Assembly (NCBI GenBank): GCA_047611865.1
Contig: JBLFWS010000047.1
Span: 1 to 21,240, forward strand
DNA: 21,240 nucleotides
Direction of reading: 5' to 3'
Source: Chlamydiales bacterium
GTDB taxonomy: Bacteria > Chlamydiota > Chlamydiia > Chlamydiales > JBDQID01
Each line of letters opens with the position of its first letter. Position 1 is the stretch's first letter. The notes below the pieces were generated by a model. That model worked only from the letters and a program-made list of their open reading frames with translations. It was not told where the DNA came from and searched no databases. Shown here piece by piece: positions 6,703 to 15,966 of the stretch. The position numbers and the translations under genes were made by a program.

Positions 6703-9700
6703 TTAGAGAATAGATTCGACTATTGACATCACACAACCAGGTCCTTTAATAACACTCCTCCCCCCTGTTTGAGGTATCACCTGAATTTGGGTGCTTATCC
6801 TTTCCCTTAGACTAGGTACGTGGGAAATCACCCCTATCAACTTACCATCTTGTTGTAGACCTGCGAGAGTATCGAGTGCTGTGTCCAAAGCATCTTCATC
6901 TAAAGTCCCGAAGCCCTCATCCAAGAAGAGAGAGTCCACTCTGACATTTTTGCTGGCCATACTTGAAAGTCCTAAGGCTAGAGATAGACTCACAATAAAG
7001 CTTTCACCGCCTGATAGATTTTTAGTCGTTCGAATTTCTCCCCCCTGATAGTTGTCTACAACATTTAGATCCAGGGGCTGAGACTTGTCTCTGGTAAGAA
7101 GGTAACGGTCTGTCATTTTCTGTAGCTGCCTGTTCGCATGACCTACCATCATTTCAAAGGTCAAGCCTTGAGCAAAGTTGCGGTATTTCTTTCCGTCGGC
7201 AGAGCCTATTAATTCATGAAGAGTATCCCAACGGGAGCACTCCTTCTTCTGTGATTCTACCGCTTTAACACGGTCCAGCATATGCAGGCGCAGGTTTTTA
7301 TCAGCTTCGAGTTGTTGCTGGATACGACCTATATCCTGCTGCAATTCTTTCAAGCTTTTAGAGAGTATACTTAGCTCTACGTCCAATTCTACACAGGTCT
7401 TATCTGTCAGATTTTTCTTCTGCTCGACCTCCAGCCTCGCAAGCCTGTCTTTACGGCGAGTTTCAAGCTCTGTTTTCTCTGATGTGAGGTCTCTTTCCTG
7501 ATCTTCAAGGGCTTTGCGTTCATGTTCTTTCAAACAAGATTTTGTGAAATCTTCCTCATCTGTGAATTGACTTTTGCCGAGTAGAGAGCTAAAAGATTCC
7601 TCGCTGACTTCCAAGCTTAGCCCTCGCTCATTTATCGATTTTTCCAGCGCTACAATTCGGGACTTTTGATTGCTCAGTTCCAGATTTTTTTTATTTAATG
7701 CTTCACGAGCAATATCCAATTCTTTTTCAGCTTTTTCTACCGCTTCAAAAAGCCTGGACTCGACCTCATCAGGCCTTTTTTCCCCGAATATCTTTTTCCG
7801 CTCTGCCAACAAAACATCAAGCTCTTGAATAAGAGTCAGAAGCTTCTGCTGCTGTTCTTTCAGCTCTACTTCCTGTTTCGCAATCTGATCGGCTTGTTGC
7901 TTTTTCAATATCTCCGCATTAGACACTCGCTTTTCAAGCTCGATCTTCCCCTCTTGCCTTTCTATCCATTGAAGACGTTTTCCACTTAACTTCTCTAATA
8001 AGCTATCAAGATGATCCATGGGAAGAGTCTCTATCCCGTAAGGCTTGACCCATTGTAGTGTCTCGCTCTGGACTTTGTGAAATTGTCTTTCAAGAACCTC
8101 CGCCTCATCTCTCAACCTTTTCAGATCATTTTCAGATGATTCTTTTTTGAACTCAATCGTCTGAAATACTTTTTCTTCGAGGATATAATTTTCCTTGGCA
8201 ACGTCAAGAGCTTTACGCTGTGCTTCAAGGCTTTTTTCGATTTTCTCAGCTTCGTCAATTACAGCAGCAGATTGGCGATATTCCTCTTCAAGCTCCAGAA
8301 GTAAACGACAAACTATAGCGGCTCTATCGTCTTGATCGGAAAGATCTATTGACGCAGAACTAAAGTCATCGACCAAACGTTTTTGTAGACTTTCAAGCTG
8401 AAGGGCTTGTTCCTTTTGCCTGTCTGCCACAAGCTCTTGTTCTTTAAGTGCTTTTACTTTTTCGTTCGATGTCTCTGAGATTGTCTGATTCAGCTTTCTT
8501 AAAGCTTCTCTCTTTTCATCGAGGGTTCTTTTACTTTCATCAGGCTTGGGCACATTTTCCAAAGCAAAGGGATGTTCTTTTGATCCACAAAGGGGGCATT
8601 GCTCACCGTCTTCCAGGTTACAACGCTCCTCTTCAAGATCCTTTATCCTGTTGAGCAGAATAACTTGGGTTTCCAGACCTTGAATTTCCTTTTCCAGAGT
8701 GCCTTGATCTTTCATTTTCTCAAGCTCAAGCAGTGAGAGCTTCTCCCCTTTCTCCTTCAGTATTTTCTCTTTTTCAGAAAGGGAGTTTTTAGAAACTTTC
8801 AGCTCCTCAATGTCATTTAAAATGCCCGTGATCTGCTTTAACAAGAGCTTGCGATCTTTGAGGCTAGAGAGTTCCTTTCGCCAGTGACTGCTTTCTTTGT
8901 CTTCCAGGTTTTCCCTCAGGACATTCTGCAAGCTTTTGAAATCCGCTTCCTTGGATAATAATTCACCCTTTAACTTTTCCAGCTTCTCTTTGGATTTCTC
9001 CCAACTATCATGAATTCCCTTTTTGCTCTTCTCCGTTTCGCTGATAGCTTCAATATGGCCTTTATGCTTCTTTGCGACCTCCCGAAAACTTTCAAAGCGC
9101 CCCTTGATCCCTGTCAGGTTTTCTACAAGGCTTTCGTCTTCTTTGTTTTCATTGAGGAAATTCTCTATTTCCATCAGCTCTCCCCGTGATTTCTCCAGAG
9201 TGTCGCAAGCGATGCTATTATCTTTACGTGCTGTTTCGAGGTCTTTTGTGAGCTTGGCTACTGTTCCTGTCGCTTCATCAATGGGCTTTTCTTTTTCTTT
9301 TCGGCTAAGATCCAATCCACGAACTTTATAGATCGTTTGCATGCCTTCTTTTTGATCTGCCTTTTTTTGGAGAAGCTCTTCACTTGCTTGGCTTAATCCT
9401 TTCTGCCTCTCTTTTGCCTCGGATTCAAGCAAGGGGGAGCTCTCCGCCAGCTCTTTCAACGTACTACTCTCACCATTCTGTGCATTCCGAATTGCCGTAA
9501 GAGCCGCGTAATCTCCAGTAAACTCTAAAGCCTGTTTTGCACGTTCTAGCAGTTTTGATTGGGGACGGAAAGCCTCCATTCGAGAAGCCAAGTCTTCTTG
9601 CCCTTCTTTTATAGAGACGAGTTCTTTTCCTAAGATCTCAATATCTTTCAGCCAAATAATAGCTTTGTTTTTCTTGAAAATTTGCTTTTCAAAATCTGAT

Positions 9701-10395
9701 TCTTCAAGACTCTTCTGCTTGTGGCTGACTCTCAGTCCCTGCTCTTCTTCTTCACTCAAGGGTTGCATTCCAGAGAGTTCAGCGTGTAAGACATCGAGTT
9801 TTTTTCTCTCCTCTGAGCGCCTTTCATGTACGCCAACAGAAATCTGGCTATAAATTTCCGTACCCGTAATCTGTTCGAGTATAGGTGCCCTCTCATCGGG
9901 TGCCGCCTGAAGAAATGCAGCAAATCCCCCTTGAGCAAGGAGCATAGAACGGGTGAAACGGTCAAAATCCATGCCTGTGAGTTCTTCCACTTTTAAAGAA
10001 ACCCTTCTGAGCTGTGACTCTAGGATTTTCCCAGTATCGGCTTCTGAAATCTCATGCTTGGGTTCTTGTAATTTCCCATCAGCTTTCTTTCGGGACCTAT
10101 GCTGTCCCCAGTGGCATTGAAAATTCCCCATTTGATTTTGAAATGTAAGCTCTGCAAAACACTCCCCTGTTTGCCGTGACATCAACTCGTTACTGCTCTT
10201 GTTGACTCTGTCTAGGCGAGGCGTTCTGCCATACAAAGCTAAACATATGGCATCGAGTATCGTTGTCTTCCCAGCTCCTGTGGGACCCGTAATTGCAAAG
10301 ATCCCATCAGAAACAAAAGCCGGCTTGCTAAAGTCTATTTCCCATTCACCGATCAGAGAGTTCAGATTTTTAAATCGTACTTTTAATATTCGCAT
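6703..10395 (-). CDS. sbcC: SbcC/Rad50-family SMC-like ATPase
   Basis: 1230 aa. Walker A GPTGAGKT, Q-loop LLAQGGF, long coiled coils, zinc hook CPLCGS, signature LSGGE, Walker B/D-loop LFLDEGFGTLD, H-loop VISHV. Confidence 0.95.
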   Translation of the reverse strand: MRILKVRFKNLNSLIGEWEIDFSKPAFVSDGIFAITGPTGAGKTTILDAICLALYGRTPRLDRVNKSSNELMSRQTGECFAELTFQNQMGNFQCHWGQHRSRKKADGKLQEPKHEISEADTGKILESQLRRVSLKVEELTGMDFDRFTRSMLLAQGGFAAFLQAAPDERAPILEQITGTEIYSQISVGVHERRSEERKKLDVLHAELSGMQPLSEEEEQGLRVSHKQKSLEESDFEKQIFKKNKAIIWLKDIEILGKELVSIKEGQEDLASRMEAFRPQSKLLERAKQALEFTGDYAALTAIRNAQNGESSTLKELAESSPLLESEAKERQKGLSQASEELLQKKADQKEGMQTIYKVRGLDLSRKEKEKPIDEATGTVAKLTKDLETARKDNSIACDTLEKSRGELMEIENFLNENKEDESLVENLTGIKGRFESFREVAKKHKGHIEAISETEKSKKGIHDSWEKSKEKLEKLKGELLSKEADFKSLQNVLRENLEDKESSHWRKELSSLKDRKLLLKQITGILNDIEELKVSKNSLSEKEKILKEKGEKLSLLELEKMKDQGTLEKEIQGLETQVILLNRIKDLEEERCNLEDGEQCPLCGSKEHPFALENVPKPDESKRTLDEKREALRKLNQTISETSNEKVKALKEQELVADRQKEQALQLESLQKRLVDDFSSASIDLSDQDDRAAIVCRLLLELEEEYRQSAAVIDEAEKIEKSLEAQRKALDVAKENYILEEKVFQTIEFKKESSENDLKRLRDEAEVLERQFHKVQSETLQWVKPYGIETLPMDHLDSLLEKLSGKRLQWIERQEGKIELEKRVSNAEILKKQQADQIAKQEVELKEQQQKLLTLIQELDVLLAERKKIFGEKRPDEVESRLFEAVEKAEKELDIAREALNKKNLELSNQKSRIVALEKSINERGLSLEVSEESFSSLLGKSQFTDEEDFTKSCLKEHERKALEDQERDLTSEKTELETRRKDRLARLEVEQKKNLTDKTCVELDVELSILSKSLKELQQDIGRIQQQLEADKNLRLHMLDRVKAVESQKKECSRWDTLHELIGSADGKKYRNFAQGLTFEMMVGHANRQLQKMTDRYLLTRDKSQPLDLNVVDNYQGGEIRTTKNLSGGESFIVSLSLALGLSSMASKNVRVDSLFLDEGFGTLDEDALDTALDTLAGLQQDGKLIGVISHVPSLRERISTQIQVIPQTGGRSVIKGPGCVMSIVESIL

Positions 10396-10397
10396 TT

Positions 10398-15709: not shown

Positions 15710-15907
15710 CTACGCCATTACGTTTTGATCGTAAAAAGATTTAAACTGATTTAGAGCGAGCCTTGAAGGAGCGGTCTTCCCATTTTCCCAACGATTAACG
15801 GTTGCGAAACTTACTCCCAGTGCATGGGCCAGATCTTTTTGGCTTATTTTCAAATACTTACGAAGGTCTTTGACCTGCTGAGGGAAAATATCTTGTTCAA
15901 AAGACAT
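15710..15907 (-). CDS. XRE-family helix-turn-helix transcriptional regulator
   Basis: 65 aa: VKDLRKYLKISQKDLAHALGVSFATVNRWENGKTAPS is a canonical HTH_3. Confidence 0.88.
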   Translation of the reverse strand: MSFEQDIFPQQVKDLRKYLKISQKDLAHALGVSFATVNRWENGKTAPSRLALNQFKSFYDQNVMA

Positions 15908-15947
15908 AAATATACCTGTACAATCTCTACTAAAGCAACGCTCTTAA

Positions 15948-15966
15948 AGTATAACATCTGTTATAC
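15948..15966 (-). promoter_or_regulatory. Palindromic operator overlapping an extended -10 promoter of the HTH gene
   Basis: GTATAACA-TC-TGTTATAC (15949-15966) is a perfect 8-bp inverted repeat. The minus strand reads TGT-TATACT (extended -10, 15956-15948), 40 nt upstream of the HTH ATG. Confidence 0.7.

Follow-up and report, generated by a model that had tools for sequence, protein, structure and literature searches.

Described relatives of the locus

In Photorhabdus laumondii DJC, growth stops at 36 °C owing to the operon trlR-trlF-trlG (TRL) (Hapeshi et al. 2020, PMC7554251). The subject of this study is a trlF-trlG pair in a Chlamydiales bacterium, where it stands behind a gene for a small regulator of the XRE family and is followed by sbcD and sbcC, which encode an Mre11-type nuclease and a Rad50-type ATPase. 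The five genes lie on contig C47 (JBLFWS010000047.1) of assembly GCA_047611865.1 (3.59 Mb, 272 contigs, 41.5% G+C); the entire contig of 21,240 nucleotides (nt) was analyzed and is referred to below as the window. A sequence-only reading of the window had proposed that the five genes form a single, undescribed defense system, in which sensing and processing of DNA ends are coupled to an RNase. The comparison presented here makes it likely that one transcription unit holds two separate things, namely, an acquired cassette of the TRL type and the lineage's own sbcD-sbcC pair.

In P. laumondii, the TRL operon is reported to be induced by a temperature up-shift, and 19 of the 29 sequenced clones that escaped the arrest carried single-nucleotide polymorphisms in trlG, with one more carrying an insertion sequence; none carried a mutation in trlF. 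The patchy distribution of the operon led its authors to suggest separate acquisitions (PMC7554251). The nearest relative of TrlF with a described activity is Escherichia coli Ppl (Gao_Ppl), which a review presents as a nucleoside triphosphate-gated 3'-5' exonuclease that is gated also by DNA 3'-OH ends (PMC12904381), and which is described in a preprint as toxic in cells without RecBCD (bioRxiv 10.64898/2026.09.30.755081). TrlG belongs with the bacterial Schlafens, among which tRNA-cleaving anti-phage proteins have been reported; the "HisKinase" fusion is given as the commonest class (34%), and the two active constructs described are fusions to DUF262 and to an Ig-like domain (PMC13056530). 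A further preprint gives the stand-alone "Schlatpase" as the commonest bacterial Schlafen architecture, at 58.6% (bioRxiv 10.64898/2026.05.29.728809).

The window shares with the Photorhabdus operon the order and close spacing of trlF and trlG (an 8-nt gap here) and a gene for a small DNA-binding regulator upstream. It differs in the regulator, which is an XRE protein of the HTH_3 family instead of an HTH_73 protein, in the host, which is of an unrelated lineage, and in the presence of sbcDC at a distance of 32 nt. The core is therefore a host and regulator variant of an already named two-gene cassette and not a new kind of system; the three-gene core of the combination that had been regarded as undescribed corresponds to trlR-trlF-trlG, which was named in Photorhabdus in 2020 (PMC7554251).

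Organization of the locus

The five open reading frames (ORFs) are co-oriented on the minus strand and all are intact. In the direction of transcription, they encode the XRE-family helix-turn-helix (HTH) regulator (positions 15710 to 15907, 65 aa), TrlF (12904 to 15570, 888 aa), TrlG (11660 to 12895, 411 aa), SbcD (10398 to 11627, 409 aa), and SbcC (6703 to 10395, 1230 aa). The ORF coordinates give intergenic gaps of 139, 8, 32, and 2 nt and reproduce the spacing, orientation, and intactness that had been read from the sequence before. All junctions of the five genes are covered by Logan contigs from three public runs, two of which are possibly the source of the assembly itself; the third run contributes one Logan contig of 518 nt that corresponds to positions 11368 to 11885 and crosses the trlG-sbcD junction. 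The adjacency of trlG and sbcD is therefore not an assembly artifact. Terminator prediction gave no terminator within the 32-nt gap between trlG and sbcD, and sbcDC is likely to be cotranscribed with the cassette upstream.

Domain composition of TrlF and TrlG

TrlF matches SMC_N, AAA_23, and AAA_21 and the NCBIfam model NF045780 (TrlF family AAA-like ATPase), the latter with 547.7 bits against a cut-off of 350, and the match extends over residues 11 to 887 of the protein and positions 3 to 944 of the 944-position profile. The Ppl equivalog model NF042955 scores 175.5 bits over residues 77 to 882, below its cut-off of 1000, and the PADLOC model of Ppl matches TrlF with an expect value (E) of 6e-37. 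TrlF is thus a paralogue of the anti-phage Ppl and not Ppl itself. Both proteins are about 880 aa long, are homologous over the full length, and join a PHP domain to an ABC ATPase of the Rad50/SMC-like type, which in TrlF has a long helical insert; TrlF differs in having an obligate-looking Schlafen partner (68 of 80 loci; see below), whereas Ppl acts alone.

The Walker A motif of TrlF (GGRGTGKS) is found at residue 291, and the LSGGQ, MDQPEDN, and ATHN motifs are found in the C-terminal lobe; the columns of the ATPase motifs are invariant across 20 homologues. Homologues with 62 to 69% identity occur in many phyla. Because the PHP domain is barely detected by Pfam (17.1 bits, E of 0.0073, below the cut-off of 26.4), residues 1 to 270 were modeled with AlphaFold from an alignment of 21 sequences, which gave a predicted local distance difference test score of 80.7. 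In a fold search with this model, the top matches were PHP phosphoesterases, EndoQ, and RNase AM (template modeling score of 0.54, E of 5e-5), and further structural matches were the PHP domains of Pol III alpha. According to the model, the N-terminus of TrlF takes a PHP-type metal phosphoesterase fold. In a sequence search of the PDB, TrlF found SMC and Rad50 heads only, and its PHP part matched nothing.

TrlG consists of an SLFN_AlbA_2 domain (74.2 bits, cut-off 25.3) and a HATPase_c_4 domain (65.6 bits), i.e., it is a stand-alone Schlafen (AlbA_2) joined to a GHKL-type ATPase, the type called "Schlatpase." The HisKinase and Schlatpase classes of prokaryotic Schlafens share this architecture, in which the AlbA_2 domain bears the Ex4ExK motif and precedes the GHKL-type ATPase. 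The active examples in print are fused to DUF262, Ig-like, Csx15, or Argonaute domains; TrlG differs in being coupled to TrlF instead of carrying a fused sensor. The motif Ex4(E/D)xK reads E14-NSGV-E19-F-K21 in TrlG, and all of the 20 homologues compared keep its E14, E19, and K21. TrlG is 69% identical (280 of 407 residues) to TrlG of Photorhabdus akhurstii. Four of the 13 positions mutated in Photorhabdus TrlG could be mapped (S16, V35, A36, and R126), and all four are conserved in the window; at the other nine, the published wild-type residue disagreed with the Photorhabdus sequences used. A sequence search of the PDB with TrlG returned only one uncharacterized protein (3lmm). TrlG is presumed to be the growth-arresting effector of the cassette. 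The name TrlF, the PHP/ABC-ATPase call, and the Schlafen-HATPase call for the third gene, all made in the sequence-only reading, hold.

Conservation and mobility of the trlF-trlG pair

The pair was compared across 80 TrlF loci from other species (one genome per species, TrlF 45 to 71% identical), each with up to 10 kb on either side. A TrlG homologue (54 to 77% identical) lies directly 3' of TrlF in 68 of the 80 loci, at a spacing in the alignments of 9 to 58 nt in 67 loci and 297 nt in one, and TrlG is partial or interrupted in four of the 68. The remaining 12 loci comprise two with too little downstream sequence and 10 in which at least 3.9 kb without TrlG follows. Pairwise distances in TrlF are correlated with those in TrlG (Mantel r of 0.71 for 54 full-length pairs; none of 999 permutations as high). 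In one of the loci (L052, positions 3702 to 6612), TrlG is in two parts, residues 1 to 187 and 185 to 411, with about 1.7 kb between them, as if interrupted by an insertion.

Residues ~454 to 528 of TrlF, which belong to the helical insert (window positions ~13987 to 14211), are conserved in 59 TrlG-linked copies and relaxed in nine TrlG-less copies; P472, R483, and E488 reach a conservation of 90% or more in TrlG-linked TrlF and are kept in two of the nine. This segment may be a contact site for TrlG, although the signal is weak and comes from nine TrlG-less sequences of few clades. A complex prediction for full-length TrlG with TrlF residues 400 to 740, a cut chosen from this weak conservation signal, gave a score of 0.00, which speaks neither way. 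In TrlG-less loci (L068, L078, L099, L103, and L109), TrlF stands beside other defense or mobile genes, which include McrBC with an AAA_5 ATPase, an nSTAND3-Mrr protein, the conjugation genes TraI and TraD, and pentapeptide-repeat proteins.

The genes upstream of TrlG-linked loci were surveyed by taking the largest ORF of at least 130 aa that ends no more than 2.5 kb upstream. Fifty-seven such ORFs were found and 56 were scanned, the one left out being the Photorhabdus kayaii ORF that contains TrlR. Eighteen of the 56 belong to DNA-methylase, specificity, restriction, or BrxL families, i.e., they are of the restriction-modification (RM) or BREX type. Six further neighbors are of families that we take to be associated with defense, namely, DUF2397 (twice), DUF3375, AAA_15/21, YhcG/DUF1016, and SNF2/ResIII. 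TrlF is present on 23 plasmid records, 16 of which are conjugative or mobilizable, and on none of the phage records searched. The trlF-trlG pair is a conserved, mobile two-gene unit; it is spread over many phyla, is carried by plasmids, and often lies within RM or BREX-like operons.

Within the order of the host, TrlF was found in none of the 399 other genomes scored (E ≤ 1e-20; two candidates scored per genome, one further genome unscored). In 40 genomes, one from each of as many other families of the order, a TrlF search gave only weak ABC-motif matches. This distribution indicates that the cassette was acquired horizontally in this lineage.

The XRE regulator and its presumed operator

The 65-aa regulator matches HTH_3 of Pfam with 45.3 bits (E of 9e-12). 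A perfect inverted repeat, GTATAAC-N4-GTTATAC (positions 15949 to 15966), lies 5' of its gene as a 7+4+7 palindrome that overlaps the -10-like hexamer TATACT, as had been noticed from the sequence alone, and is presumed to be the operator of the XRE repressor. The exact palindrome word matches the window once and none of 100 shuffled versions, a comparison that tests this word and not palindromes generally. A repeat search at a minimum length of 12 reported no repeats in the stretch; it missed the palindrome because the arms are only 7 bp. The spacing to the -35 element is noncanonical, being 15 or 19 nt as read from the sequence, and a promoter scan did not list the palindrome/-10 site. The -10 region GTTATACTTT is found again upstream of the sole clearly related XRE regulator, which belongs to one of the compared loci (L059).

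A similar HTH regulator is present at two of the 80 TrlF loci. What lies upstream of TrlF varies among HTH_73 (in Photorhabdus), HTH_3, HTH_17, and ribbon-helix-helix proteins, and some loci are regulator-free. Photorhabdus TrlR is an HTH_73 protein (PF24718), unlike the HTH_3 regulator of the window, and a pairwise comparison of the two gave no significant similarity (E of 0.021 over 31 residues). The XRE regulator is therefore analogous, and not orthologous, to TrlR.

The sbcD-sbcC pair

SbcD consists of Metallophos and SbcD_C domains and exceeds the cut-off of TIGR00619 (215.5 bits against 77.65). SbcC matches AAA_23 and SbcC_Walker_B and falls below the cut-offs of PRK10246 (529 bits against 750) and of a second model (336.7 against 478.5); its motifs are complete, with Walker A at residue 37, the CPLC zinc hook at residue 600, LSGG at residue 1127, and Walker B at residue 1156. 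The pair resembles SbcCD of E. coli in its family domains, zinc hook, ATPase motifs, sbcD-sbcC order, and 2-nt gap, and it differs in that SbcC is longer (1230 aa) and below the equivalog cut-offs, and in that the pair is parted from its ancestral upstream neighbors and stands behind a defense cassette. A second sbcCD, the search for which had been recommended with the sequence-only reading, is absent elsewhere in the assembly. A role of SbcCD as a substitute for a missing RecBCD was considered and rejected, as contig C1 carries recB-like and recC-like genes.

Neither SbcC nor SbcD occurs within 10 kb of TrlF in any of the 80 loci. With SbcC as the query, five of the 40 genomes from other families of the order gave a match, and a sixth match covered only a 39-residue P-loop. 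The genes sbcD and sbcC are paired in four relatives (G001, which is of the same family, G012, G037, and G004), and near these four loci no ORF for TrlF or TrlG was found, nor any remnant even at E ≤ 10. SbcD of the window is 72% identical to that of G001. A tree of 124 SbcD sequences places that of the window beside P0123; G001, P0125, and P0126 join this group next (support of 0.93), followed by G012 (0.99). The phylogeny, which had likewise been called for, thus unites SbcD with G001 and G012 and leaves G037 outside the clade, which calls simple vertical descent into question.

In G001, sbcD is preceded by two genes whose orthologues (67% and 80% identical) are on contig C230 of the present genome, so the ancestral neighborhood of sbcD is broken here; the ends of contigs C47 and C230 do not overlap. 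Judged from G001, sbcDC is older than the TRL insertion. On this comparative evidence, sbcD and sbcC are best regarded as resident adjacent genes and not as conserved parts of the cassette. The fallback offered with the sequence-only reading, i.e., that sbcDC is a housekeeping pair that became adjacent, is better supported than its primary proposal.

TrlF of the window is sister to P0017 (support of 1.0, 69% identical) and TrlG is sister to P0243 (support of 0.985, 84% identical, with all other hits at 72% or less); the SbcD homologue P0125 (70% identical) lies inside the G001 clade. For each of the three, the recorded source is one contig with a length of 17,700 bp, very probably the same contig in all cases; a close relative would then hold TRL and sbcD within 17.7 kb. 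A metagenome scan with SbcD of the window gave nine other loci, none with TrlF and one (L119) with a weak TrlG-like match (E of 1e-5), and a scan of viral contigs with P0243 gave no match.

Proposed function and alternative explanations

On the reading that we prefer, an acquired TRL-type cassette stands upstream of resident sbcDC, and trlF-trlG is probably an anti-phage pair. The XRE protein would repress its own promoter via the palindrome and keep the operon low. Upon infection or DNA damage, the ATPase head of TrlF would recognize abnormal DNA ends and its PHP domain would degrade DNA, and TrlG, switched by ATP-driven oligomerization of its GHKL domain, would cut tRNA or rRNA, whereupon growth would stop. 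Transcription from the cassette promoter would continue into sbcDC simply as a result of where the cassette inserted, 32 nt 5' of these genes.

Several observations weigh against this reading. No phage experiment on trlF-trlG was found in the literature searched. The spacing of trlF-trlG-sbcD-sbcC is operon-like, and the trlG-sbcD gap is without a predicted terminator. Across a split at the family level, TRL and sbcD may have remained together, longer than expected of a chance neighbor; the probably shared 17,700-bp contig is the main evidence against an accidental adjacency, and it is equally explained by the inheritance of one insertion event. Copies of TrlF without TrlG are spread over three or more clades nested within the TrlG-linked copies, and the two proteins may therefore not be strictly interdependent. 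Because none of the Photorhabdus escape mutations lies in trlF, the part played by TrlF in the arrest is only putative (PMC7554251), and neither of the two Schlafen-"HisKinase" genes tested in PMC13056530 is one of its two active systems. As to sbcDC, G037, a relative of the same order, lies outside the SbcD clade of the window, and SbcD is 64 to 70% identical to proteins labeled by their sources as Gammaproteobacteria or Desulfuromonadales; for these two reasons sbcDC may itself be an old acquisition of the clade.

The proposal that the five genes act as one composite defense system, in which SbcCD senses or processes DNA ends or hairpins and passes a signal on to the ATPase (TrlF) and the RNase (TrlG), draws on the gaps of 8, 32, and 2 nt without a predicted terminator, on this being the sole sbcCD of the assembly, on the closest known relative, in which one contig of 17,700 bp probably holds both TRL and SbcD, and on reports that Ppl-type proteins act on DNA ends, which are the substrate class of SbcCD (PMC12904381, bioRxiv 10.64898/2026.09.30.755081). 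Yet the order of the five genes recurs in none of the 80 TrlF loci, none of the four sbcDC loci of relatives, and none of the nine metagenomic SbcD loci, with the 17,700-bp contig as a possible exception. It is TrlG, and not SbcC or SbcD (0 of 80), that accompanies TrlF (68 of 80), and sbcDC stands alone in four relatives, including G001 of the same family. Both Sbc proteins have a canonical appearance, zinc hook and full set of ATPase motifs included, and Photorhabdus TRL is described as complete and active as three genes, with no adjoining sbcCD (PMC7554251). A composite system is thus very unlikely; the domain calls of the sequence-only reading and the defense flavor of its first three genes stand, and its single five-gene system does not. 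We see a slim chance for the related possibility that the sbcDC operon captured TRL as its leading part, that this arrangement was kept across a family-level split, and that the two modules cooperate. Expression of SbcCD would then be tied to an XRE-controlled defense promoter, and SbcCD may open hairpins or protein-blocked ends, making 3'-OH ends for the Ppl-like TrlF to sense; alternatively, it may clear self DNA ends and prevent autoimmunity, as reported for RecBCD with Ppl and OLD. This safeguard version is not forced, because the genome also has RecB and RecC.

Two further explanations concern the cassette itself. Were trlF and trlG independent single-gene defenses, a Ppl-like nuclease and a stand-alone Schlafen that travel together in defense islands, this would agree with reports that Ppl acts as a single gene (PMC12904381) and that single-gene Schlafens protect (PMC13056530), with the lack of TrlG, spread over three or more clades, at 10 of the 78 TrlF loci whose downstream sequence is long enough, and with Photorhabdus escape mutants that hit trlG only (PMC7554251). 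The order and close spacing are constant in 68 of 80 loci from many phyla, however, the TrlF and TrlG distances are correlated (Mantel r of 0.71), and residues ~454 to 528 of TrlF are conserved in company with TrlG and relaxed without it, as a contact site would be, a weak indication from nine sequences of few clades; independence is highly improbable. It is unlikely, too, that the cassette is a stress-triggered growth-arrest or addiction module and not an anti-phage one, even though temperature restriction is the sole published phenotype, with induction upon an up-shift, arrest at 36 °C, and growth restored by deletion (PMC7554251), and even though no phage data were found in the literature searched. 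The RM/BREX-type neighbors (18 of 56), the carriage of TrlF on plasmids, and the homology to Ppl and to anti-phage Schlafens (PMC13056530) speak for defense; moreover, abortive-infection systems that are mis-triggered also arrest growth, and the stress and anti-phage readings are not exclusive.

If the cassette and sbcDC are indeed separate, the locus illustrates that a resident repair operon may be taken for a component of a defense system when the spacing is operon-like, and that comparative context separates the two. TrlF-TrlG is very widespread, mobile, and highly conserved (62 to 69% identity across phyla); in it, a DNA-end nuclease-ATPase of the Ppl kind is paired with a Schlafen of the class that is commonest in bacteria yet functionally unproven. 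Should TrlF provide the sensor missing from stand-alone Schlafen-GHKL proteins, their inactivity in one published panel could be explained. The window adds one host lineage and one unusual downstream neighbor.

Neighboring genes on the contig

Downstream of sbcC and on the same strand, after 149 nt, positions 4891 to 6553 encode a HipA-like kinase (HipA_C, 161 bits) with an overlapping HTH_31/HipB-like ORF, and the two look like a toxin-antitoxin pair. Positions 4085 to 4804 (plus strand) hold an RhlE-like DEAD-box helicase gene of which only the C-terminal half is present; it matches residues 243 to 403 of a 437-aa paralogue on contig C169, and no N-terminal remnant is found upstream. On the other side of the locus, a hemA-like gene (positions 16144 to 17549, minus strand) scores 199.4 bits against a cut-off of 209.55 and is without the C-terminal part of the model; a second copy, 43% identical, is on contig C71. 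The statement that the neighboring genes are decayed is thus borne out only in part. The hemA-like gene overlaps a 90-aa ORF that has no family match and contains an RRTFLK stretch, which we take to be Tat-signal-like.

A 533-aa ORF (positions 1891 to 3492, plus strand) has no match in Pfam, NCBIfam, or PADLOC, and a YopT-like Peptidase_C58 ORF (positions 1 to 744, plus strand) is truncated by the start of the contig. Positions 17840 to 19312 encode an IS66-family transposase, further copies of which are on contigs C118, C248, and C86. In the region from 18400 to 19500, contig depth rises about six-fold at positions 18952 to 19485 in three runs, as expected because the IS66 element, which lies at the island edge, is repeated.

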